Assembly: GCF_030013595.1 (NCBI RefSeq)
Contig: NZ_CP122768.1
From: Escherichia coli
Lineage (GTDB): Bacteria > Pseudomonadota > Gammaproteobacteria > Enterobacterales > Enterobacteriaceae
DNA: 64,000 nucleotides
Reading direction: 5' to 3' (one strand)
Shown: one piece after another, positions 3 to 60,746 of the stretch
Position numbering within the stretch: the stretch's first letter is position 1
Layout of the letters: each line of letters begins with the position of its first letter
Notes under the pieces: generated by a model
What the model was told of the DNA's origin: nothing
The model's database searches: none
The model's input: only the letters and a program-made list of their open reading frames with translations
Program-made: the position numbers and the translations under genes

Positions 3-803
3 ATGAAACGAATTAACGCTCTGACGATTGCCGGTACTGATCCCAGTGGTGGTGCGGGGATTCAGGCCGATCTTAAAACCTTCTCGGCACTTGGCGCTTA
101 TGGTTGCTCAGTTATTACTGCACTGGTGGCGCAAAATACCCGTGGCGTACAGTCGGTGTATCGCATTGAGCCTGATTTTGTCGCCGCCCAGCTCGATTCG
201 GTGTTCAGCGATGTGCGAATCGACACCACTAAAATCGGTATGTTGGCGGAAACCGATATTGTTGAAGCGGTGGCAGAACGGTTGCAACGTTATCAGATCC
301 AAAACGTGGTACTCGACACCGTTATGCTGGCAAAAAGCGGCGACCCGCTGCTTTCACCTTCGGCGGTTGCTACGTTGCGCAGTCGATTATTGCCACAGGT
401 TTCATTAATAACGCCAAACTTGCCCGAAGCTGCTGCCTTGCTCGACGCGCCACACGCGCGCACCGAACAGGAAATGCTGGAACAAGGGCGATCGCTGTTG
501 GCGATGGGCTGTGGCGCAGTGCTAATGAAAGGTGGTCATCTGGATGATGAGCAAAGCCCGGACTGGCTGTTTACCCGCGAGGGTGAACAACGGTTTACCG
601 CACCGCGCATTATGACCAAAAACACCCACGGCACTGGTTGTACGCTCTCTGCGGCGTTGGCTGCACTACGCCCGCGCCATACAAACTGGGCTGACACCGT
701 ACAGGAGGCAAAAAGCTGGCTTTCATCAGCATTAGCCCAGGCCGACACGCTGGAAGTTGGTCACGGTATTGGTCCGGTTCACCACTTCCACGCCTGGTGG
801 TGA
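3..803 (+). CDS. thiD: hydroxymethylpyrimidine / phosphomethylpyrimidine kinase
   Basis: 266-aa ORF; N-terminus MKRINALTIAGTDPSGGAGIQADL recognised as ThiD; ATG at nt 3, so the upstream gene lies outside the window. Confidence 0.9.
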   Translation: MKRINALTIAGTDPSGGAGIQADLKTFSALGAYGCSVITALVAQNTRGVQSVYRIEPDFVAAQLDSVFSDVRIDTTKIGMLAETDIVEAVAERLQRYQIQNVVLDTVMLAKSGDPLLSPSAVATLRSRLLPQVSLITPNLPEAAALLDAPHARTEQEMLEQGRSLLAMGCGAVLMKGGHLDDEQSPDWLFTREGEQRFTAPRIMTKNTHGTGCTLSAALAALRPRHTNWADTVQEAKSWLSSALAQADTLEVGHGIGPVHHFHAWW

Positions 804-858
804 GCACCGTACTATAGCTGCTTTGGTTATTGTCAGCCTTTGGCACTGACATTCAGGG

Positions 859-1686
859 ATGAAACCAATGCAGCTGAGAATCACCAGTCGAAAAAAATTC
901 ACCGCTTTATTATGCGCTCTTGGGCTAATTTCCATCGTTGCAATTTGTCCACGTCAGACGGTGAATTTTTTCTATTCGACAGCAGTTCAGATTAAAGACT
1001 ACATCCACTTCTACGGTTATCGCCCGGTTAAATCTTTCGCTATTCGCATTCCTGCCAGTTACACCATTCACGGAATAGATGTTTCGCGCTGGCAGGAGCG
1101 GATCGACTGGCAGCGGGTGGCAAAAATGCGCGACAACGGTATCCGCTTACAGTTTGCTTTTATTAAGGCGACGGAAGGCGAAAAGCTGGTGGACCCCTAT
1201 TTTTCGCGTAACTGGCAACTAAGCCGCGAAAATGGCCTGCTGCGCGGGGCGTATCATTATTTCTCCCCGTCGGTAGCAGCGCCTGTTCAGGCGCGATTAT
1301 TTCTGCAAACGGTGGATTTCTCACAAGGCGATTTCCCTGCCGTGCTGGACGTAGAAGAACGGGGAAAATTATCGGCAAAAGAATTACGCAAGAGGGTAAG
1401 TCAGTGGCTAAAAATGGTCGAAAAAAGTACGGGGAAAAAGCCGATTATTTACTCAGGAGCCGTTTTTTATCACACGAATCTGGCGGGCTATTTCAATGAA
1501 TATCCGTGGTGGGTGGCTCACTACTATCAACGTCGTCCGGACAATGACGGCATGTCCTGGCGCTTCTGGCAGCATTCCGACCGTGGACAGGTAGATGGCA
1601 TCAATGGTCCGGTGGATTTTAATGTGTTTAATGGCACGGTGGAGGAGTTGCAGGCATTCGTTGATGGGATTAAAGAAACGCCTTAA
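859..1686 (+). CDS. yegX: GH25 lysozyme-like glycoside hydrolase family protein
   Basis: 275-aa ORF with an N-terminal hydrophobic segment; position after thiD and sequence recognised as YegX; true start may be a few codons downstream. Confidence 0.8.
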   Translation: MKPMQLRITSRKKFTALLCALGLISIVAICPRQTVNFFYSTAVQIKDYIHFYGYRPVKSFAIRIPASYTIHGIDVSRWQERIDWQRVAKMRDNGIRLQFAFIKATEGEKLVDPYFSRNWQLSRENGLLRGAYHYFSPSVAAPVQARLFLQTVDFSQGDFPAVLDVEERGKLSAKELRKRVSQWLKMVEKSTGKKPIIYSGAVFYHTNLAGYFNEYPWWVAHYYQRRPDNDGMSWRFWQHSDRGQVDGINGPVDFNVFNGTVEELQAFVDGIKETP

Positions 1687-1737
1687 ATAAGAAGCAGTGA
1701 TATACTCCCACCAGACTCCCTGGCAGGAAAAAGACAA

Positions 1738-2484
1738 ATGGAACAAGCGCATACCCAGCTGATTGCCCAACTGAACGAGCGTATTTTAGCGGCGGATAAC
1801 ACGCCGCTTTATATTAAGTTTGCCGAAACGGTAAAAAATGCCGTGCGCAGCGGGGTGCTGGAGCATGGCAATATTTTGCCCGGTGAGCGTGATTTAAGTC
1901 AGTTAACCGGCGTTTCGCGCATTACGGTGCGCAAGGCGATGCAGGCGCTGGAAGAAGAGGGCGTGGTGACGCGTTCGCGTGGTTACGGCACGCAGATCAA
2001 CAACATCTTCGAATACTCGTTGAAAGAAGCGCGAGGTTTTTCTCAGCAGGTGGTATTGCGCGGGAAAAAGCCCGATACGCTATGGGTTAACAAGCGTGTC
2101 GTGAAATGTCCCGAAGAAGTCGCGCAGCAGCTGGCGGTCGAAGCGGGAAGTGATGTCTTTTTGCTTAAGCGTATTCGCTATGTCGATGAAGAAGCGGTAT
2201 CGATTGAGGAATCGTGGGTTCCGGCGCATTTAATTCATGATGTTGATGCCATCGGGATTTCACTTTATGACTATTTCCGCAGCCAGCACATTTACCCACA
2301 ACGTACGCGTTCCCGCGTTAGCGCCCGGATGCCGGATGCCGAGTTTCAGTCACATATTCAGTTAGATAGCAAAATACCGGTGCTGGTGATCAAGCAAGTG
2401 GCGCTTGACCAACAGCAACGGCCTATTGAGTACAGCATTAGCCACTGTCGCAGCGATCTATACGTTTTTGTGTGCGAGGAGTAG
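1738..2484 (+). CDS. yegW: GntR/HutC-family transcriptional regulator
   Basis: 248-aa ORF; N-terminal winged-HTH region (LPGERDLSQLTGVSRITVRKAM) typical of GntR regulators; recognised as YegW. Confidence 0.85.
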   Translation: MEQAHTQLIAQLNERILAADNTPLYIKFAETVKNAVRSGVLEHGNILPGERDLSQLTGVSRITVRKAMQALEEEGVVTRSRGYGTQINNIFEYSLKEARGFSQQVVLRGKKPDTLWVNKRVVKCPEEVAQQLAVEAGSDVFLLKRIRYVDEEAVSIEESWVPAHLIHDVDAIGISLYDYFRSQHIYPQRTRSRVSARMPDAEFQSHIQLDSKIPVLVIKQVALDQQQRPIEYSISHCRSDLYVFVCEE

Positions 2485-3423
2485 TTCCTCGCGCGTTGGC
2501 GCACAATCACCGCCCCGATGCCCGACAACCCACGACGCCACTGCATTGCCCAGTAATACGGCATCCGCCAGTGGCAGACCAGAGGCCAGCCCGGCAAGTA
2601 CGCCACCGGCATGACTGTCGCCCGCCCCAATGGTGTCGACAACTTGCGTTGGAAATGCCGGAATGCAGCCAGAAGCGTCGTTGCTGAAATACCATGCGCC
2701 TTCTTTATCGAGACGAACGATCAACGGCGCGGCAAATTTCTCCTGCCATTGCTTGCCAAGTGTTGTTATCTCTGCGGATAAAGCAAAACGTTCGGCGGCA
2801 ATCTCAGCCTCTTGACGATTGAGCGACACTAAAGGTCGACAGGCCATGATCCGCGCCAGTAATGCATCCGGGATATCGCCAATACGTGGGCCAAAATCGA
2901 TAAACGGCGTCACGTCTTGCAGCTCTTCCAGCCATTCCACTAACAATTCGCCGCAGGGCGAGGCCAGTTGATAACCGGAAAAATAGAGCAGGCTGCCAGG
3001 CGCAACGGTTAATCGCGCCAGCCACTGGCGATTCCACTGATTTTCCACACCGCTGAATGACATAAAAGTGCGTTCGCCATCCGGCTCAACCAGCGCCAGA
3101 CACCAGCCGTTATCACCTTCGGCGTTATCGATCAGGCTGATTAAGCCCTCTTTTGCCATCCGGTTGCGAATAATCTCCGCCCACACGCCCTGACCGAGCG
3201 GCAAGGCATTACCCGCTTCGATGCCGAGGCGCTTTAACGCCACGGCAATATTCAGTGCGCAGCCGCCAACGTTAACGCTCTGCTGTTTCAGTTCGATATC
3301 GCACCCACGCCAGGGGAGGGCATAAGCGTCGGCGATCACGTCAATGACCGCCGCGCCGACGACCATCACCGGCTGACGCGTGGTTAATTCAGGCAGCAGC
3401 GTGTGTAATCGAGCGCCGCTCAT
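2458..3423 (-). CDS. yegV: PfkB/ribokinase-family sugar or nucleoside kinase
   Basis: 321-aa ORF; C-terminal TIGAGDSHAGG matches the PfkB signature; 3' end overlaps yegW by 27 nt (convergent). Confidence 0.85.
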   Translation of the reverse strand: MSGARLHTLLPELTTRQPVMVVGAAVIDVIADAYALPWRGCDIELKQQSVNVGGCALNIAVALKRLGIEAGNALPLGQGVWAEIIRNRMAKEGLISLIDNAEGDNGWCLALVEPDGERTFMSFSGVENQWNRQWLARLTVAPGSLLYFSGYQLASPCGELLVEWLEELQDVTPFIDFGPRIGDIPDALLARIMACRPLVSLNRQEAEIAAERFALSAEITTLGKQWQEKFAAPLIVRLDKEGAWYFSNDASGCIPAFPTQVVDTIGAGDSHAGGVLAGLASGLPLADAVLLGNAVASWVVGHRGGDCAPTREELLLAHKNV

Positions 3424-4424
3424 ACCGCCTCCCGTTGTTGACGATATTTCGCCAGCGCTGTGGCATAGCGGTTGAAATCAAGCTGATTTACCGCATCCAG
3501 TTCCGCCTTTAACGCAGGATCGATAGCGTTAACGCCATGCAACGCGCCGCAAATTGCCGTCGCCATAGCACCGATGGTGTCTGTGTCGCCGCCAAGGTTA
3601 GCGCACAGGACGGCGCAGCGATTCGGGTCGGTTTGTGCCAGTTCAACCAGCGCAATGGCGCACGGAACGGACTCAATAGTGCTGGTACCTGCGCCAACGA
3701 CCTGGTAAAGCTGTTCGCTGGCGGATTCGGTGCCGTCGGCATTGCGCACAATTTTCAGCGCAATCTCCAGCCGCGCCGCCAGTGAGGCGCTGAACGTAGT
3801 GATGCGTTTTTGCTGTGCATGTCGCGCAATTGAAGGCAGGGAATCAACAATCGCTGACCAGCTTTCTCCGTCAATGGCACGAGAAATCGCCCATGCGATG
3901 ACTACCGCGCCTGCAACCGCCAGATCGGATTTATGGGTCGGGCTGGACGCCAGCGCTACATCATCAATAAAGGAATCAACATCACGCGCCGGAAGCAAAC
4001 AACCTAATGGCGAGACGCGCATCGCTGCGCCGTTGGTCACGCCGTTGTTTTCCAGTTCAGCAACGGGTTTACCGTCGCGAATGGCGTTAAGCGCAATCTT
4101 CGAGGTCGGACCTAGCACGTTTTTGTTGAAGGCGTCGAAACGCAGCGCCCAGTCGAGGATATTACGCCCAATCAGATCCGGATCGATCTTGCCTTTACGT
4201 TCCAGCAACGCATCCGCCAGACACAGCGCCATCGAGGTATCGTCGGTGAATTCGGCGCGGTTAAAATAACAGGCCGCGTTATTCTCCTTTGGTCCAGGCA
4301 GAAAACGGTCAATCCAGCCAAAGTGTGCTTTAACGCGGCTGCGTGGCCAAAGCTCGGAGGGCATCCCCATCGCATCCCCTAACGCCTGCCCATAAAGAGC
4401 ACCGAGAATACGTTCTGTTTTCAT
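3420..4424 (-). CDS. yegU: ADP-ribosylglycohydrolase-family hydrolase
   Basis: 334-aa ORF; start overlaps the yegV region by 4 nt and its stop overlaps the yegT start (operon arrangement); recognised as YegU. Confidence 0.85.
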   Translation of the reverse strand: MKTERILGALYGQALGDAMGMPSELWPRSRVKAHFGWIDRFLPGPKENNAACYFNRAEFTDDTSMALCLADALLERKGKIDPDLIGRNILDWALRFDAFNKNVLGPTSKIALNAIRDGKPVAELENNGVTNGAAMRVSPLGCLLPARDVDSFIDDVALASSPTHKSDLAVAGAVVIAWAISRAIDGESWSAIVDSLPSIARHAQQKRITTFSASLAARLEIALKIVRNADGTESASEQLYQVVGAGTSTIESVPCAIALVELAQTDPNRCAVLCANLGGDTDTIGAMATAICGALHGVNAIDPALKAELDAVNQLDFNRYATALAKYRQQREAV

Positions 4425-5698
4425 TTAACTTCCCCTTGTGTCAACGCAATATCGCGATCATCGACCTTGATAGCCGTAATTTCGTTGTCGGATTCGCGGA
4501 AAAAAATCATGAACAGCACGGCGATAATGGCAATCATCACCGCGCCAAAAGTCCACATCCCGGACCAGTTGAAAGTCAGTCCGTTTACCGGTTCCTGATA
4601 AGCGAACATCTTTTCCATCATCACACCGCCAAGACGATAGCCGAGCAAACTGCCGAAGCCCTGGCAGCAGAGCGTGATCAGCCCCTGCGCGGCGGTACGC
4701 ATATGCACGGGGGCTTTTTTATCGACATAGATGTAAGCGGTAACGTAGTAAAAATCGTAACTTACGCCGTGAAGCAAAATACCGAGGAACAGTAACGCGT
4801 AGGTGAAATATTCATCCGCACTACCGTAAATAAAGAAGCCATAGCGGATCGCAGCGGTGACCAGACCAAGCAATAATACCTTTTTGATACCAAAGCGTTT
4901 AGTGAAAAACGGTAATGCCAGCATAAAGAATATTTCAGAGAACTGGCCGAGCGTCATCCAGCCGGTGGCATTTTTCATGCCGACTTCGGTCAGATAACCG
5001 TTGGCAAAGATGTAATAGAACGCCAGTGGCATCGCAAACAGGAATGAACAGAAGAAAAAGACGAGGAAGTTTTTATCGCGCAGCAGGATCAGCGCATCCA
5101 GGCCGAGCATGACTTTAATATCCATTTTGCCGGTGCTTTTTGGTGGCGTGTCGGGCAGGAAAAACGCAAACACACCGAGCAGAGCAGAACTTCCGGCGGT
5201 AATCAGCAGCGGGATGTTAGTCGGTGAGATATCGGCATACCCCAGTATTTGCGGCAAGAAACCACATGCCAGACCGGAGGCAATCCAGCCGATAGTGCCC
5301 ATCACACGAATGCGCGGGAAATCACGCTCCACATCCGGCACGTTGGCAAAAGCGATGCTGTTAGTCAGCGCAATGGTCGGCATATAGGTTAGAGAGTAAG
5401 CCAGCAGTAACGGAAAGAACCCGGCAAAAGTGGTCTGTTGCGCAGCGAAATACATCAGCAGCGCGCCTGCGAACATCAATACCGCCAGCACTTTTTGCGC
5501 CGAGAAAAAGCGGTCAGTGATGGAGCCAACCAGAATTGGCGACAGGATCGCCGCAATGGCGGTACAGGCATACGACCAGCCAATTTCTCCGGCACTAAAA
5601 CCGCTTTTACTTAACCACAACCACAATGGCACAAACCACGCGCCCCAGATAAACCATTCAACAAACATCATGAACGACAGCTTTGCTGTTGTTTTCAT
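4421..5698 (-). CDS. yegT: nucleoside:H+ symporter family MFS transporter
   Basis: 425-aa ORF, highly hydrophobic with multiple predicted TM segments; first gene of the yegTUV operon. Confidence 0.85.
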   Translation of the reverse strand: MKTTAKLSFMMFVEWFIWGAWFVPLWLWLSKSGFSAGEIGWSYACTAIAAILSPILVGSITDRFFSAQKVLAVLMFAGALLMYFAAQQTTFAGFFPLLLAYSLTYMPTIALTNSIAFANVPDVERDFPRIRVMGTIGWIASGLACGFLPQILGYADISPTNIPLLITAGSSALLGVFAFFLPDTPPKSTGKMDIKVMLGLDALILLRDKNFLVFFFCSFLFAMPLAFYYIFANGYLTEVGMKNATGWMTLGQFSEIFFMLALPFFTKRFGIKKVLLLGLVTAAIRYGFFIYGSADEYFTYALLFLGILLHGVSYDFYYVTAYIYVDKKAPVHMRTAAQGLITLCCQGFGSLLGYRLGGVMMEKMFAYQEPVNGLTFNWSGMWTFGAVMIAIIAVLFMIFFRESDNEITAIKVDDRDIALTQGEVK

Positions 5699-5954
5699 CT
5701 TTTAATTCCTTCATGACAGGTAATGTAAGGTACGCGATGACAATACCACTTAATAATACCTTTTAAATACCTTTACGGTGAAAACTTGACCGCGCTAACA
5801 TTTTTTCTGATGAATCGAGCCAACAGAAAACGCTGAAAAAACATCCAAAAGATGGAAAAACTCGCCCGTAACGACCAGGATTATGATTGCCCGCAAAAGG
5901 CGGGCCAGGACAATCCATAGCCGATATCCAATCGGAATTTACGGGAGCATAGTA

Positions 5955-7007
5955 ATGACAGATATTGCGCAGTTGCTTGGCAAAGACGCCGACAACCTTT
6001 TACAGCACCGTTGTATGACAATTCCTTCTGACCAGCTTTATCTCCCCGGACATGACTACGTAGACCGCGTAATGATTGACAATAATCGCCCGCCAGCGGT
6101 GTTACGTAATATGCAGACGTTGTACAACACCGGGCGTCTGGCTGGCACAGGATATCTTTCTATTCTGCCGGTTGACCAGGGCGTTGAGCACTCTGCCGGA
6201 GCTTCATTTGCTGCTAACCCGCTCTACTTTGACCCGAAAAACATTGTTGAACTGGCGATCGAAGCGGGCTGTAACTGTGTGGCATCAACTTACGGCGTGT
6301 TGGCGTCGGTATCGCGGCGCTATGCGCATCGCATTCCATTTCTCGTCAAACTTAATCACAACGAGACGCTAAGTTACCCGAATACCTACGATCAAACGCT
6401 GTATGCCAGCGTGGAGCAGGCTTTCAACATGGGCGCGGTGGCGGTTGGTGCGACTATCTATTTTGGCTCGGAAGAGTCACGTCGCCAGATTGAAGAAATT
6501 TCTGCGGCTTTTGAACGTGCGCACGAGCTGGGCATGGTGACCGTGCTGTGGGCCTATTTGCGTAACTCCGCCTTTAAGAAAGATGGCGTTGATTACCATG
6601 TTTCCGCCGACCTGACCGGTCAGGCAAACCATCTGGCGGCAACCATAGGTGCAGATATCGTCAAACAAAAAATGGCGGAAAATAACGGCGGCTATAAAGC
6701 GATTAATTACGGTTACACCGACGATCGTGTTTACAGCAAATTGACTAGCGAAAACCCGATTGATCTGGTGCGTTATCAGTTAGCTAACTGCTATATGGGC
6801 CGGGCTGGGTTGATAAACTCCGGCGGTGCTGCGGGCGGTGAAACTGACCTCAGCGATGCAGTGCGTACTGCGGTTATCAACAAACGCGCTGGCGGAATGG
6901 GGCTGATTCTTGGACGTAAGGCGTTCAAGAAATCGATGGCTGACGGCGTGAAACTGATTAACGCCGTGCAGGACGTTTATCTCGATAGCAAAATTACTAT
7001 CGCCTGA
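5955..7007 (+). CDS. fbaB: fructose-bisphosphate aldolase class I
   Basis: ORF track extends to 5883, but the internal ATG at 5955 ([19 protein letters not shown]) gives the 350-aa FbaB with a GGGAG Shine-Dalgarno 8 nt upstream. Confidence 0.88.
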
Positions 7008-7011
7008 TACG

Positions 7012-7175
7012 CCTTATACGAACAACACCACCCCGTAGGACGGATAAGGCGTTTACGCTGCATCCGGCAACCTATGCCTGATGCGACGCTGAAGCGTCTT
7101 ATCATGCCTACATAGCACTGCCACGTATGTCGGAAAAGGCGTTTACACCGCATCCGGCATAAAAACACGCGCACT
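7012..7175. repeat. REP (repetitive extragenic palindromic) elements
   Basis: Several copies of the GCCGGATGCGGCGT / CGCCTTATCCGGC-type palindromic unit between fbaB and gatY. Confidence 0.7.
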
Positions 7176-12731: not shown

Positions 12732-12800
12732 CAAAACAGATCATTCACCAATGGTCCCCCTTCGTTTACACTAGCCACAATTGAATATGGGTAAATGACG

Positions 12801-13574
12801 ATGAATTCATTCGAGCGAAGGAATAAGATCATCCAATTAGTGAATGAACAGGGAACCATGCTTGTTCAGGATCTGGCGGGAGTATTTGCTGCCTCGGAAG
12901 CGACAATCCGTGCCGATTTGCGCTTTCTCGAACAAAAAGGCGTGGTTACGCGCTTTCATGGCGGTGCGGCGAAAATAATGTCCGGTAATAGTGAAACCGA
13001 GACCCAGGAAGTCGGGTTTAAAGAGCGATTTCAGCTCGCCAGCGCGCCGAAAAACAGAATAGCGCAGGCGGCAGTCAAAATGATCCATGAAGGGATGACC
13101 GTTATTCTCGACAGCGGAAGTACCACAATGCTTATCGCCGAAGGATTAATGACCGCCAAAAATATCACGGTGATTACCAACAGTCTCCCGGCTGCGTTTG
13201 CCCTTTCCGAAAATAAAGACATTACTCTGGTCGTCTGCGGTGGCACGGTCCGCCATAAAACGCGATCTATGCATGGATCTATTGCTGAACGTTCCCTGCA
13301 GGATATTAATGCCGATTTAATGTTTGTCGGTGCTGATGGTATTGATGCGGTTAATGGTATTACGACCTTTAATGAGGGTTATTCCGTTAGCGGTGCGATG
13401 GTCACAGCCGCTAATAAAGTGATTGCCGTTCTCGATTCATCGAAATTTAACCGTCGCGGTTTTAATCAGGTACTGCCAATCGAAAAAATTGACATTATTA
13501 TTACCGATGATGCTGTGTCTGAGGTGGATAAACTGGCATTGCAGAAGACACGGGTGAAATTAATTACGGTGTAG
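12801..13574 (+). CDS. gatR: DeoR-family repressor of the galactitol operon (intact)
   Basis: ORF from 12795; MNSFERRNKIIQLVNEQGTMLVQDLA... is a DeoR-type HTH N-terminus; uninterrupted reading frame of about 257 aa. Confidence 0.85.
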   Translation: MNSFERRNKIIQLVNEQGTMLVQDLAGVFAASEATIRADLRFLEQKGVVTRFHGGAAKIMSGNSETETQEVGFKERFQLASAPKNRIAQAAVKMIHEGMTVILDSGSTTMLIAEGLMTAKNITVITNSLPAAFALSENKDITLVVCGGTVRHKTRSMHGSIAERSLQDINADLMFVGADGIDAVNGITTFNEGYSVSGAMVTAANKVIAVLDSSKFNRRGFNQVLPIEKIDIIITDDAVSEVDKLALQKTRVKLITV

Positions 13575-15278: not shown

Positions 15279-15427
15279 GAATATTTTTTGGTAAGCGTCA
15301 AATATGCGCGTTCTGGCTGTGCGTAGCCGGAACCTGTGGGAGCACGATGCCGATAAGTGAAAGGCATCGTGCTATGAAGGAGGATTCTATCGATGTGGTC
15401 AATGGAAGACGGTTACCAGAGATAGGG

Positions 15428-15514
15428 CTTATGCATAAAAAAATAAGCCCGTGTAAGGGAGATTACACAGGCTAAGGAGGTGGTTCCTGGTACAGCTAGC
15501 ATTTTATGGGTTAT
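15428..15514 (-). ncRNA. cyaR: Hfq-dependent small RNA CyaR (RyeE)
   Basis: Minus-strand sequence GCTGAAAAACATAACCCATAAAATGCTAGCTGTACCAGGAACCACCTCCTTAGCCTGTGTAATCTCCCTTACACGGGCTTATTTTTT matches CyaR as I recall it, including the terminator hairpin and U tract. Confidence 0.8.
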
Positions 15515-15608
15515 GTTTTTCAGCGAAACGGATGATAACCTTAATAAATGCAGCTGTATGTGATCGGTTTCTAAGAATTTTCCATCCGGGAAAAATAATC
15601 GAAATTAA

Positions 15609-16970
15609 TCACTTACCGTGGGGATTACGCGTGGTTTCCCCGGAGAAATTACGCATCAGCAGCGCGTAATTGAGCTCAAGATCCTGCGGGACCGGGAGCC
15701 ACACAGTATAACCATCGCCTGGTGCTATCGGCATAGCTTCGCCTTTGGCGTTTTCCATGTGCTCAAGGGTAAAATTAATGTTGCCTTGCGGCGTCATCAG
15801 CTCAAGGCTGTCGCCAACGGAGAATTTATTTTTCACCGCTACCGCCGCGAGGTCCCCCTTGCGCTCACCGGTAAACTCACCAACAAACTGCTGGCGGTCA
15901 GAAACTGAATAACCGTATTCGTAGTTCTGATAATCGTCGTGAGTATGACGACGCAGGAAACCTTCGGTATAGCCACGATGCGCCAGACCTTCCAGAGTTT
16001 CCAGCAGGCTGGTATCGAACGGTTTTCCCGCAGCGGCGTCATCGATAGCTTTGCGGTAAACCTGTGCGGTGCGTGCACAATAGTAGAAAGATTTGGTACG
16101 ACCTTCGATTTTCAGCGAATGCACGCCCATTTTGGTCAGGCGTTCTACATGGGCGATGGCGCGCAGATCTTTCGAGTTCATGATGTAAGTGCCGTGCTCA
16201 TCTTCAAACGCGGTCATATACTCGCCCGGACGCTGGGCCTCTTCGATCATAAACACTTTGTCGGTTGGTGCGCCGATACCCAGCGTCGGCTCAACATTTT
16301 GCACCGGAATCGGCTCGTACTTGTGTACGATGTTGCCAACATCATCTTCTTTCCCTTCCTGGACGTTGTACTCCCAGCGGCAGGCGTTGGTGCAGGTGCC
16401 CTGGTTCGGGTCGCGCTTGTTGATATAGCCAGAGAGCAGGCAGCGACCGGAGTAGGCCATGCACAGCGCGCCGTGAACGAAGATCTCGATCTCCATATCC
16501 GGCACCTGATTGCGGATCTCTTCAATCTCTTCCAGCGACAGCTCGCGAGAGAGGATCACGCGGGTCAGGCCCATTTGCTGCCAGAATTTCACCGTCGCCC
16601 AGTTCACGGCGTTAGCCTGCACCGAAAGGTGGATCGGCATTTCAGGGAAGTGCTCACGCACCAGCATAATCAGCCCTGGATCGGACATAATCAGCGCATC
16701 CGGCCCCATTTCCACCACCGGTTTCAGGTCACGGATAAAGGTTTTCAGCTTGGCGTTGTGCGGTGCAATGTTGACCACGACATAAAACTTTTTCCCCAGC
16801 GCGTGGGCTTCATTGATGCCGAGCTGAAGATTTTCGTGGTTGAATTCGTTGTTGCGCACACGCAGGGAATAACGCGGCTGGCCCGCATAAACAGCATCTG
16901 CGCCATAAGCGAAAGCGTAACGCATATTTTTCAGCGTTCCCGCCGGGGAAAGGAGTTCCGGTTTAAACAT
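15609..16970 (-). CDS. yegQ: U32-family peptidase-like protein (tRNA hydroxylation factor TrhP)
   Basis: 453-aa ORF recognised as YegQ (peptidase U32 family). Confidence 0.88.
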   Translation of the reverse strand: MFKPELLSPAGTLKNMRYAFAYGADAVYAGQPRYSLRVRNNEFNHENLQLGINEAHALGKKFYVVVNIAPHNAKLKTFIRDLKPVVEMGPDALIMSDPGLIMLVREHFPEMPIHLSVQANAVNWATVKFWQQMGLTRVILSRELSLEEIEEIRNQVPDMEIEIFVHGALCMAYSGRCLLSGYINKRDPNQGTCTNACRWEYNVQEGKEDDVGNIVHKYEPIPVQNVEPTLGIGAPTDKVFMIEEAQRPGEYMTAFEDEHGTYIMNSKDLRAIAHVERLTKMGVHSLKIEGRTKSFYYCARTAQVYRKAIDDAAAGKPFDTSLLETLEGLAHRGYTEGFLRRHTHDDYQNYEYGYSVSDRQQFVGEFTGERKGDLAAVAVKNKFSVGDSLELMTPQGNINFTLEHMENAKGEAMPIAPGDGYTVWLPVPQDLELNYALLMRNFSGETTRNPHGK

Positions 16971-17072
16971 AATTCTCTCGTTCTGATGACAGGTCAGATC
17001 CGCTTCACCTGATGAAGCGGTTAGGGGAGTGCCCCCACTTTAAGGGCGGGCATTGTAGCGCAATCGGCGGGT

Positions 17073-17369
17073 TTAGCTCCAGTGTAAATGTCTGGTGGCG
17101 TCCTGGTTTTGGTTAAGGATACGAATGACGATAATTTCCCCTGGTGATTGCAGGAAATAAATGACGTGGCGTTCAAAAGGAAGAACAAAAATACCTTCGC
17201 CTAATTCAGGTCTGGGCGTACCTATATTATTGTTACTCAGAATCTGGAGAACGTCTGAAAGATGTTCCACATATCTGTCGGCTTGTGGTTCGCCGAAATG
17301 GTGATAGCTGTAATACCAGATGCCTTCTAAATCCTCATTGGCTTTTGGCATGAGTTTAATAATACGCAC
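17073..17369 (-). CDS. ParE/RelE-superfamily type II toxin
   Basis: 98-aa ORF; pattern ...ANEDLEGIWYY...PRPELGEGIFVLPFERHVIYF...IIVIRILNQNQD fits ParE-family toxins; start is 1 nt after the upstream antitoxin stop. Confidence 0.7.
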   Translation of the reverse strand: MRIIKLMPKANEDLEGIWYYSYHHFGEPQADRYVEHLSDVLQILSNNNIGTPRPELGEGIFVLPFERHVIYFLQSPGEIIVIRILNQNQDATRHLHWS

Positions 17370-17370
17370 A

Positions 17371-17622
17371 TTATTTCCTTATCCCTGCTTTCACCTTCCG
17401 TAAGAACGCGTCCTTTTCCCACGGCTGAGCTTCACCACTACTCAACCCTTCTGCGAGCATGTCACGTAACGCTTGCAGGCGAGACTCTGCTTGCTTTTCT
17501 CGAAGTAATCGCAGTGACTCACGGATCACTTCGCTTTGGGTGCGATAGTCGCCGGATTCAATTAAGGACTCGATAAATTCACGCAACTCATCGCCGAGAT
17601 CAACCGTCATCGTTCTGGCCAT
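17371..17622 (-). CDS. ParD-family (ribbon-helix-helix, COG3609-like) antitoxin
   Basis: 83 aa from the internal ATG at 17622 (MARTMTVDLGDELREFIESLIESGDYRTQSEVIRESLRLL...); ORF track begins at 17667 but that start lacks an SD. Confidence 0.7.
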   Translation of the reverse strand: MARTMTVDLGDELREFIESLIESGDYRTQSEVIRESLRLLREKQAESRLQALRDMLAEGLSSGEAQPWEKDAFLRKVKAGIRK

Positions 17623-17875
17623 TTTACGCCCGCCTGTAAGTAAAAATCTTACATCAGTGTATGTCATAAACCGGATAGCGTCACGAAAGTATTAGAAGAT
17701 ATTTTGGCACATGAACATGTTCAGGAGGATAAGTATGGGATGGTAAACAAAGAAAGCACAACGAGTGCTCGTCAGTGCCCACTATTTTAATGGCGGCGGT
17801 TACTCTTAATTATTAATAACTAAGCGTTATTTGGATATAAAGCCGGACGCCAACAACCCACGCCCGGCATCGTAA

Positions 17876-18208
17876 TTACGTATTGTCTTTCACCGTCTGG
17901 CTTGTGCCATTGGCTTTAACGGAGGCAATTCCGGTTTCACGAGATTGCGCGGTGGCGTACATCTGGCTGGAGCCGATAATTTGATGATTAGCGGCTTTCA
18001 GATTGAAATAGAATTTGCCGTTACTTGCCGTTTTTTTCTCATAGCGTTCTTCTTGCGGGCTGTTGCTACGCACCGACGCGATGCCCTTTTCCGCAGAGGC
18101 TTTTGAGGTATACAGCTCGCTGGTGAGGATAGTCTCACCATTGCCCGCTTTTAGCACAAACCGGAACTGATTATCACTGCTCTTACTGAGTTCAAACCAA
18201 CCAGCCAT
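17876..18208 (-). CDS. yegP: UPF0339 (DUF1508 tandem repeat) protein
   Basis: 110 aa from the ATG at 18208, preceded by AAGGAG; sequence MAGWFELSKSSDNQFRFVLKAGNGE... recognised as YegP. Confidence 0.85.
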   Translation of the reverse strand: MAGWFELSKSSDNQFRFVLKAGNGETILTSELYTSKASAEKGIASVRSNSPQEERYEKKTASNGKFYFNLKAANHQIIGSSQMYATAQSRETGIASVKANGTSQTVKDNT

Positions 18209-29599: not shown

Positions 29600-29740
29600 G
29601 CGGGACGCTGAAACGGGAAAGCCCCTCCCGAGGAAGGGGCCATAAATAAGGAAAGGGTCATGATGAAGCTACTCATCATCGTGGTGCTCTTAGTCATAAG
29701 CTTCCCCGCTTACTAAGACTACCAGGGCGGGGGAAACCCC
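29600..29740 (-). ncRNA. sibB: Sib-type antisense sRNA (antitoxin of ibsB); approximate bounds
   Basis: Established arrangement: Sib RNAs are transcribed antisense across ibs ORFs. A minus-strand hairpin plus T-rich tract lies near 29600-29640. Bounds not verifiable here. Confidence 0.35.
29660..29716 (+). CDS. ibsB: type I toxin, small hydrophobic peptide
   Basis: 18-codon ORF encoding MMKLLIIVVLLVISFPAY preceded by AAGGAAAGGG; matches the Ibs toxin family. Confidence 0.7.
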   Translation: MMKLLIIVVLLVISFPAY

Positions 29741-29929
29741 GCTCTACCCTCACTCCTGAAAGTATGCCTTCACGATAAGATTGTCAATCCGCAGGCTTTG
29801 TAGTCTGCGATCCTGCCAGCAAATATTCTTTGCGAGTCGTTACGCAATAATCACAGAGGAAACTATTTTATTCACGCGTTAGCGATAGACTGCATTCAGG
29901 GCGAAAGGAGGTAAGCCGATGATTTCAGC

Positions 29930-30070
29930 GGGACGCTGAAACGGGAAAGCCTCTCCCGGAGAAGAGGGCTTTTAATAAGGAAAGGGTTATGATGAAGCAC
30001 GTCATCATACTGGTGATACTCTTAGTGATTAGCTTCCAGGCTTACTAAGAACACCAGGGGGAGGGGGAAA
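29930..30070 (-). ncRNA. sibA: Sib-type antisense sRNA (antitoxin of ibsA); approximate bounds
   Basis: Second copy of the repeat unit; inferred by analogy with the first copy. Confidence 0.35.
29989..30048 (+). CDS. ibsA: type I toxin, small hydrophobic peptide
   Basis: 19-codon ORF encoding MMKHVIILVILLVISFQAY preceded by AAGGAAAGGG. Confidence 0.7.
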   Translation: MMKHVIILVILLVISFQAY

Positions 30071-30268
30071 CCTCTCCCTAACCCTCACTCCTGAAATTAT
30101 GTCACTCCGCCCTTAGTGTCAATCGACGGCTCTCCGTTCTTGCGAGGCGAATAGCAAAATTTTCTGCGCCGCCGGGCCTAATTCTGAAAGTTTCTTCGTT
30201 TGCTCTTATTTCATTATTGCAGTCGGTATGATACCGGACCTCGATAATTCTCTAAGAAAGGATTTCTT

Positions 30269-45523: not shown

Positions 45524-45991
45524 AGTAAGTACAAAACCTATTCGTTGTATGACAAATGTCACAATTCGATCATGGATAAATCGGGGCAAAAATGCAATGT
45601 TGCAGCACTATTTATCTCATATTATTTGAGGGTAATAACCTCACATTATCCCTGAATTAAAAGTGGTAATAATAAAACATTATTTAAGAAATATCGCATG
45701 TGGAGGCGCAATATTAAATATTGTCAACCTAAAGAAACTCCTAAAAACCATATTGAATGACACTTAATATAATTCTTAAAAATAGCCAATTGCCGAATTG
45801 TTACCTTGCCTGCTATTCCGTTAGCTGTAACACTTCCTCCTGCATTATTGGAGAGCCAATATTCAATTACCATAATGTCACCTTATATTCGGAAGTTAAT
45901 TTCCGCAATAACCCTTTCTCATCAACGATTGTATGCTGAGAGGGTGTGAAAAATTAAGCTAAATCAGTGTATTGGTAGCTAAAAAGCCAGG

Positions 45992-46003
45992 GGCGGTAGC
46001 GTG
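45992..46003 (+). promoter_or_regulatory. ops element (RfaH-dependent antitermination signal, within JUMPstart)
   Basis: Exact GGCGGTAGCGTG about 180 nt upstream of the wza start. Confidence 0.65.
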
Positions 46004-60380: not shown

Positions 60381-60656
<276 letters not shown>

Positions 60657-60746
60657 AATGAATGCGAAACCGCGGTGTAAATAATGACAAAAACAAAATT
60701 GGCCGTTTCGGTCAGGGCCAACTATTGCCTGAAAAAGGGTAACGAC

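Follow-up and report, generated by a model that had tools for sequence, protein, structure and literature searches.

The stretch of Escherichia coli DNA analysed here (contig NZ_CP122768.1; 64,000 nucleotides, hereafter the window) carries two small genes between yegP (17876-18208) and yegQ, now named trhP (15609-16970). The neighbours are baeR, baeS and mdtDCBA on the yegP side, and CyaR and yegR on the yegQ side. An apparent third ibs copy belongs to a comparison genome and lies outside the window. The original prediction described an antitoxin ORF followed by a toxin ORF on the minus strand, 1 nt apart and located between yegP and yegQ, and this arrangement was confirmed by the ORF list, the sequence itself and the RefSeq coding sequences. 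The TAA stop codon of the antitoxin gene parD occupies 17373-17371 and is separated by one base from the GTG start codon of the toxin gene parE at 17369. A Shine-Dalgarno-like AAGGAA is present 6-11 nt upstream of this GTG. Both coding sequences occur with the same coordinates in a RefSeq/PGAP genome that is 100% identical over window positions 16900-18000. The genes and the elements around them are as follows.

17052-17057, minus strand: -10 box (TACAAT) of the yegQ/trhP promoter; its -35 partner is split, with only TTTA left at 17841-17838 beyond the cassette
17073-17837, minus strand: the whole cassette of ~765 bp, standing where the K-12-type site has the 5 nt CCAGA; each boundary is accurate to within a few nt
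17073-17369, minus strand: parE toxin gene as given in the ORF list, 98 aa, GTG start (PGAP CDS WP_001220181.1, named type II toxin-antitoxin system RelE/ParE family toxin)
17371-17622, minus strand: parD antitoxin gene, revised to 83 aa; the longest and annotated ORF is 17371-17667, ATG start, 98 aa (WP_001307279.1, named ParD family antitoxin)
17635-17653, no strand assigned: palindrome TGTAAG-N7-CTTACA, the predicted ParD operator, directly downstream of the -10 box and around the transcription start expected near 17649
17656-17684, minus strand: predicted parDE promoter, with -35 GTGACG at 17684-17679, a 17-nt spacer and -10 TACACT at 17661-17656
17754-17770, minus strand: terminator-like hairpin found by scanning, inside the cassette and upstream of the parDE promoter; kept in E. 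whittamii

The two genes are adjacent and co-oriented, with the antitoxin first, a spacing of 1 nt and a putative operator at the promoter, which is the layout of a type II operon. The locus most probably represents a type II toxin-antitoxin cassette that is of the ParE/ParD (PF05016/PF03693) kind, compact and intact, and fixed in the chromosome.

Pfam, solved structures and a confident structural model agree in identifying the downstream product as a ParE-family toxin of full length. Residues 4-90 match positions 1-88 of the 89 positions of PF05016 (ParE_toxin) with an E-value of 2e-13, and 1966 representative relatives were found at E ≤ 1e-3. No NCBIfam family was matched at E ≤ 0.01, and the assignment therefore rests on Pfam, the PDB and the fold. 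All five matches to PDB sequences at E ≤ 0.01 are ParE toxins, namely PrpT from Pseudoalteromonas rubra (7YCS; the best, at 2.3e-12), MtParE1, CcParE1, VcParE2 and a Mesorhizobium ParE. The eight nearly invariant positions of the family (A10, D13, I17, A30, Y33, H68, R83 and L85) are all kept. An AlphaFold2 model calculated from 112 diverse relatives (pLDDT 93.6) shows an α-hairpin formed by helices 8-25 and 27-46, followed by strands 60-65, 68-74 and 78-86.

The fold also bears on the activity that may be expected. Both PF05016 and the PGAP designation "RelE/ParE family" cover ribosome-dependent mRNA endonucleases of the RelE type as well as ParE-type gyrase poisons, and the RNases RelE, YoeB and YafQ were detectable with Foldseek when the model was used as query (TM 0.5-0.66). 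However, solved ParE structures superposed much better (TM 0.74-0.88), and the long N-terminal α-hairpin of the model is typical of ParE. With every sequence match to a solved structure being a ParE and with a partner antitoxin that is a ParD (PF03693) and not a RelB, it is very improbable that the toxin is a RelE-like RNase.

The upstream product scored 87.6 bits against TIGR02606, for which the cutoff is 46.2, and matched PF03693 with an E-value of 8.6e-19; a weak match to RHH_1 (0.0049) was also observed. The closest solved structure is PrpA (7YCS_D, 1.9e-27), with ~61% identity over 77 residues (2-78) that include the ribbon-helix-helix and the toxin-binding C-terminal half. The protein also aligns with the ParD proteins of 7B22, 3KXE and 8C24. 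From these alignments, ParD is predicted to consist of an N-terminal ribbon-helix-helix DNA-binding domain and a C-terminal toxin-binding segment. The original prediction, which had called for HMM searches, is thus borne out for both products: the ParD-like character of the upstream one by PF03693, TIGR02606 and solved structures, the ParE/RelE-like character of the downstream one by PF05016, solved ParE structures and the predicted fold, and both proteins match their families far beyond chance.

The family matches of ParD begin only at residue 16 (PF03693) or 19 (TIGR02606) of the 98-aa form. In every ParD homologue compared MARTMTV are the first residues; these homologues are from IncF plasmids of Klebsiella, Pantoea, Citrobacter and Enterobacter, from Yersinia mollaretii, from the chromosome of another enterobacterial genus and from E. 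whittamii. The upstream ATG of E. whittamii lies 46 nt away instead of 45 and is not in frame, and an independent gene caller reports an 83-aa ParD in two metagenomic loci (L012 and L013). In view of the homologue starts, the E. whittamii frame and the independent gene calls, ParD probably starts at the ATG at 17622 and comprises 83 aa, rather than starting at the annotated position 17667 with 98 aa. The ORF 17371-17667 given originally for the antitoxin does exist, but its start codon is probably located 45 nt further downstream. The RefSeq protein model would accordingly be 15 codons too long, and it takes in the putative operator and the -10 box of its own gene, as these control elements occupy the 45 nt annotated in RefSeq as additional N-terminal codons of ParD.

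One of these elements is the palindrome. The 64-kb window contains a single GTAAG-N7-CTTAC, where 0.01 would be expected, and the motif is present in 24 of the 29 loci that were collected, just upstream of parD in each locus whose positions were compared. Loci from Providencia, Erwinia, Rahnella and Ewingella, in which ParD identity goes down to ~64%, are among those that carry it. It is missing from one ParD-bearing locus of Providencia alcalifaciens (L018) and reads GTAAA in the E. coli IncFIA/FIB plasmid copy (L005). The predicted promoter agrees with the consensus at 8 of 12 positions, which is below the scan threshold of 9 of 12. Both of its hexamers, -35 and -10, recur without change in E. 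whittamii and the distant locus L013, with a different spacer between them, and the -10 box aligns with TATAAT or TATAGT of the plasmid homologues. The palindrome is likely the ParD operator of an autoregulated type II operon with the classical layout. A scan of the cassette against Rfam gave nothing meaningful, the best hit having E = 0.89.

Among systems with solved structures, PrpT/PrpA of the P. rubra plasmid pMBL6842 (7YCS, 7YCU; PMC7848731, PMC9731233) is the best match for both proteins. PrpT shares 33% identity with ParE (2.3e-12, TM 0.88), and the strand RTMTVD of the PrpA ribbon-helix-helix is identical in ParD. The two systems have the pairing of a ParE with a PF03693 antitoxin and the antitoxin-first order in common, and PrpT, like ParE here, has a Phe (FG) at the position of Trp25 of VcParE2. 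There are also clear differences. PrpTA is plasmid-borne, whereas the cassette described here is chromosomal; prpA and prpT overlap by 8 nt, whereas parD and parE are 1 nt apart; and PrpT keeps the His of the "LHQ" motif that is replaced by Asn in ParE. PrpA furthermore binds the iterons of the plasmid origin and sets plasmid copy number. A copy-number controller of this type was considered for the present pair and rejected, in view of the chromosomal locus, the absence of a replicon nearby and the lack of RTTTGWAATR, the PrpA motif, upstream of parD: no match to it was found in 17600-17850 with at most one mismatch, and only the TGTAA core is common to both.

The closest relatives overall are ParE/ParD pairs of enterobacterial IncF plasmids, such as K. 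pneumoniae pINF078-VP, Pantoea stewartii pDSJ09 and plasmids of Citrobacter and Enterobacter. Nucleotide identity to these is ~70%, and at the protein level they share 91% identity for ParD and 63-65% for ParE. They have the same operator palindrome and also encode a 98-aa toxin with a GTG start, but their ParD is 88 aa long and overlaps parE by 14 nt, as compared to 83 aa for the chromosomal ParD. We found none of these IncF pairs to be experimentally characterised. A RelE/ParE toxin that is encoded beside a ribbon-helix-helix gene on the same IncF plasmid has no pairwise similarity to ParE here; our guess is that this second pair is ParDE^I. ParDE^I of IncI/IncF plasmids (Kamruzzaman and Iredell 2019) was itself set aside as a counterpart, since the antitoxin there belongs to COG3905.

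More distant are C. crescentus ParDE1 (3KXE), V. cholerae ParDE2 (7R5A) and M. tuberculosis ParDE1 (8C24), of which the toxins have the same fold (TM 0.83-0.84) at 26-31% identity and the antitoxins also belong to PF03693. CcParE1, VcParE2 and MtParE1 are reported to inhibit DNA gyrase. They keep the Trp of the α1-α2 loop and the His of "LHQ", where ParE here has Phe25 and Asn86. The toxins of RK2 ParDE, PaaR2-PaaA2-ParE2 and ParDE^I are likewise members of the ParE superfamily. The RK2 antitoxin belongs to PF09386, unlike the PF03693 ParD described here, and PaaR2-PaaA2-ParE2 of E. coli O157:H7 is a three-component system located on a prophage, with a toxin that is 16-17% identical to ParE.

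Alignment of the yegP-yegQ interval to a K-12-like genome revealed an empty site, which confirms the original expectation that the pair is absent from K-12. As judged from this alignment and the junction sequences, the window is again unambiguously identical to K-12 from 17061 and 17842 outwards. An intact yegQ promoter, TTTACC-17-TACAAT, is found in the K-12-like genome (L001) and in Citrobacter (L031), and in Klebsiella it reads TTTACT-17-TACAAT. Comparison with these promoters indicates that the ~765-bp cassette is inserted between the -35 and -10 boxes of yegQ/trhP. Because this promoter geometry is common to the outgroups, the empty allele looks ancestral; the cassette is an insertion. 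Between parE and yegQ, a scan of the minus strand of the window detected nothing that resembles a promoter or a terminator. In the absence of a terminator after parE, yegQ is probably transcribed in part by read-through from the predicted parDE promoter.

A stronger proposal would be that transcription of trhP in strains carrying the cassette depends on, or is regulated by, the ParD/ParDE-autoregulated promoter. The split trhP promoter and the missing terminator suggest this, but we regard it as a distinctly unlikely outcome. If true, a tRNA modification enzyme (tRNA uridine-34 hydroxylase, trhP) would be coupled to the state of a toxin-antitoxin system in a third of E. coli.

Of 5426 complete E. 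coli genomes, 1845 (about a third) contain cassette DNA, in one copy each and always on the chromosome. At least 99% identity to the window was found for 1517 copies and 95-99% for another 327, with alleles going down to ~97%; K-12 MG1655 and O157:H7 do not have the cassette. Outside E. coli it occurs at the same place in E. whittamii, with ParE 96% and ParD 99% identical. It is also found between baeR and yegQ on the chromosome of another enterobacterial genus, with the same downstream junction, where ParE is 80% and ParD 92% identical, the flanks show 77-82% nucleotide identity and yegP is absent. In Citrobacter and Klebsiella baeR adjoins yegQ with nothing in between.

A second insertion provides further information on the age of the cassette. 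A 5-kb island encoding a PcfJ-domain protein, DUF1266 and DUF4034 proteins and one hypothetical protein replaces the cassette in 298 E. coli genomes, among them NRG 857C and the type strain. Both cassette ends are left beside it, namely the final 19 nt of parE, reaching window position 17091, and the segment corresponding to 17780-17841, from which it follows that the island overwrote a pre-existing parDE. Related island genes lie directly after baeR in Salmonella. A partial match in strain BS-04 that could have been a deletion intermediate was rejected, as it falls in a poly-A-rich assembly stretch of low quality. The shared position in E. whittamii, the shared junction in another genus and the overwriting by the island argue for an old insertion that is now a presence/absence polymorphism in Escherichia. 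The original suggestion of strain-specific accessory content is correct in that the cassette is variable, but it is not strain-specific: it is a common, old allele that also occurs in another species and another genus.

Hundreds of enterobacterial plasmids, for the most part IncF, carry relatives of ~70% identity. In E. coli, the IncFIA/FIB copy mentioned above has decayed into a pseudogene, and in many further plasmid copies the match to the toxin is broken into two separate fragments.

The surroundings also bear on a possible function in defence against phages, for which there is the general precedent of some toxin-antitoxin systems acting against phage. A distant relative in Yersinia mollaretii adjoins phage holin and lysozyme genes. 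The genes that flank the E. coli cassette, however, are housekeeping genes (mdtABCD-baeSR, yegP and yegQ) and do not form a defence island. Neither protein matched a model of PADLOC-DB 2.0, and the only PHROG matches were to generic antitoxin families or to families without a known function. It is extremely improbable, in our view, that the pair is an abortive-infection or other anti-phage module.

Both genes are under purifying selection. The comparison with E. whittamii gives a dN/dS of 0.023 (parD) and 0.105 (parE), and against the plasmid homologues pN is 0.05 and 0.21, respectively, with pS of ~0.8, at which synonymous sites are saturated. These low values show that selection maintains both genes. 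Conservation is much higher for the antitoxin than for the toxin, with amino-acid identities to the plasmid homologues of 91% for ParD and 65% for ParE. This higher conservation would also fit a role of ParD beyond neutralisation.

A mechanism can be proposed by analogy with PrpT/PrpA, CcParDE1, VcParDE2 and MtParDE1. ParD would dimerise through its N-terminal ribbon-helix-helix domain, bind TGTAAG-N7-CTTACA at the promoter and repress parDE, while its C-terminal half would wrap around ParE and neutralise it. Upon depletion of ParD, free ParE could poison DNA gyrase, which would lead to the SOS response, filamentation and growth arrest or death. PrpT, the nearest relative with a solved structure, was reported to be a potent toxin in E. 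coli that causes filamentation and is neutralised by PrpA (PMC7848731). The word "gyrase" is absent from both PrpTA papers (PMC7848731, PMC9731233), and PrpT is without a demonstrated target. As neither paper mentions gyrase, its assignment as the target of ParE here is extrapolated from the more distant relatives. The roles named in the original prediction, namely gyrase poisoning, stabilisation of a region and abortive infection, would be expected of the family as a whole.

The residues that have been linked to toxicity make this last step less certain. In VcParE2 the mutation W25F weakens toxicity, and H88A, which changes an exposed residue, weakens it further in combination with F20A (bioRxiv 10.1101/2025.07.24.666505). 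The position of Trp25 is occupied by Phe25 in ParE, as in 43 of 116 representative relatives. The position of His88 is occupied by Asn86; it is Ser in the plasmid clade and His in 96 of the 116. ParE here thus has neither of the toxicity-linked surface residues of VcParE2 (Trp/Tyr25 and His88), although the family is not defined by them. The combination of Phe25 and Asn86 lowers our confidence in strong gyrase poisoning by ParE. There are also chromosomal ParE toxins that show no toxicity when assayed in E. coli (PMC6813445).

In view of the above, a domesticated module should be considered, in which the genes are intact but ParE is weak or inactive against the gyrase of the host and the cassette is kept for another reason. 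ParD could be retained as a transcription factor, low levels of ParE could protect gyrase, or the cassette could supply a promoter for yegQ/trhP. Asn86 instead of the usual His, and Phe25 instead of the Trp needed for full VcParE2 toxicity, would be consistent with such attenuation, as would the far stronger conservation of the antitoxin. The cassette has long been chromosomal, at one site and without mobile-element neighbours, and the split yegQ promoter without a terminator after parE would agree with a role in promoter supply. Besides the non-toxic chromosomal ParE proteins, a P. aeruginosa ParE that is protective against anti-gyrase antibiotics may serve as a precedent. On the other hand, many members of the family have Phe at position 25, among them PrpT, which is potent in E. 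coli. Clear purifying selection on parE (dN/dS of 0.105) and an operator-promoter arrangement typical of a classical autoregulated toxin-antitoxin system also speak against attenuation, which we consider unlikely. Separately, the enterobacterial ParE clade that lacks the His might have a target other than gyrase or might act only weakly on gyrase, a proposal to which we give as little weight as to the regulation of trhP by the parDE promoter. An intact toxin-antitoxin cassette of the ParE/ParD kind is still the preferred reading of the locus.

The pair is not novel, because over 1800 RefSeq genomes already have it annotated and its family is very large and well studied. What the present analysis adds is the corrected ParD start, the conserved putative operator, the insertion inside the yegQ/trhP promoter, and the history of an old polymorphism that was later overwritten by an island. 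The locus illustrates clearly how a minimal toxin-antitoxin cassette can lie inside a housekeeping promoter. As a common ParDE of E. coli, it may also be of interest in relation to ParE toxins, which bear on tolerance to gyrase-targeting drugs. That a first reading of the raw sequence alone recognised the pair correctly is mainly a sanity check. Literature searches returned no experiment on this parDE pair, and those directed at a yegP/yegQ toxin-antitoxin locus and the WP accessions gave nothing specific. Fraikin et al. 2020 (PMC7167474) present TAfinder predictions for reference strains in which unvalidated systems are marked, and a 2025 review of E. coli type II systems gives ParDE only as a plasmid locus.

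The yegP–yegQ gap is a hot spot that exists in three states: empty, as in K-12 and O157:H7, occupied by the parDE cassette (1845 of the 5426 complete E. coli genomes), or occupied by a 5-kb island (298 genomes). The island was read in the locus of E. coli NRG 857C.

L003 (NRG 857C locus) 800-6000, 5-kb island with genes for a PcfJ-domain protein, DUF1266, DUF4034 and one hypothetical protein

Both ends of the cassette are retained in the island allele, corresponding to window positions 17062-17091 and 17780-17841. In Salmonella, genes related to those of the island are located directly 3' of baeR.

Two elements were found in the 180-bp upstream part of the cassette.

17712-17723, perfect 12-nt palindrome TGAACATGTTCA
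17754-17770, hairpin GAGCACTCGTTGTGCTT resembling a terminator, with a T-rich tail after it

Both are present in E. whittamii, and neither was found in the plasmid relatives of the cassette or in L013, a distant enterobacterial chromosomal locus with parDE. The hairpin may insulate the cassette against read-through from yegP.

Decay is frequent among the plasmid relatives, with a broken toxin and an antitoxin cut to 59-60 aa in an E. coli IncFIA/FIB plasmid (L005) and a K. pneumoniae plasmid (L010). The operator palindrome, the predicted ParD site upstream of parD, persists in these decayed relatives.

L005 (IncFIA/FIB plasmid) 3000-3590, decayed cassette remnant

The IncFIB repB gene lies about 1.3 kb from this remnant, an arrangement that recalls prpAT, which is itself origin-proximal.

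On the yegQ side of the cassette, the transcript leader is strongly conserved in Escherichia, Citrobacter, Klebsiella and one further genus (five sequences compared).

16971-17051, minus strand, yegQ/trhP 5' leader, about 80 nt from the TACAAT -10 box to the yegQ start codon

It contains a hairpin formed by CCGCTTCA and TGAAGCGG, in which compensatory changes in three pairs preserve pairing among the five sequences. The leader matched no Rfam family.

Further along, at 15280-15608, a K-12-like genome carries P2-remnant genes, namely ogrK and a fragment of yegZ, that are missing from the window; only about 160 bp separate CyaR from yegR here.

15441-15526, CyaR sRNA

In the K-12-like genome the DeoR/GlpR regulator of the gat operon is truncated and adjoins IS3; the intact regulator at 12793-13566 is an annotation of a collinear comparison genome, not a reading of the window.

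Rfam matches included the following.

29645-30122, two tandem Sib antisense RNA/ibs type I toxin-antitoxin repeats between mdtA and yegL (RF00113, 142 and 149.5 bits)
Upstream of wza in the colanic acid cluster, JUMPstart element
Three copies of naRNA4 (REP-derived)
algC RNA motif

The last three kinds are routine and as a group span 45965-46003, 60448-60742 and 7038-7108. The closely related genome NZ_AP022215.1 carries three Sib/ibs copies against two in the window, so that copy number differs among strains.
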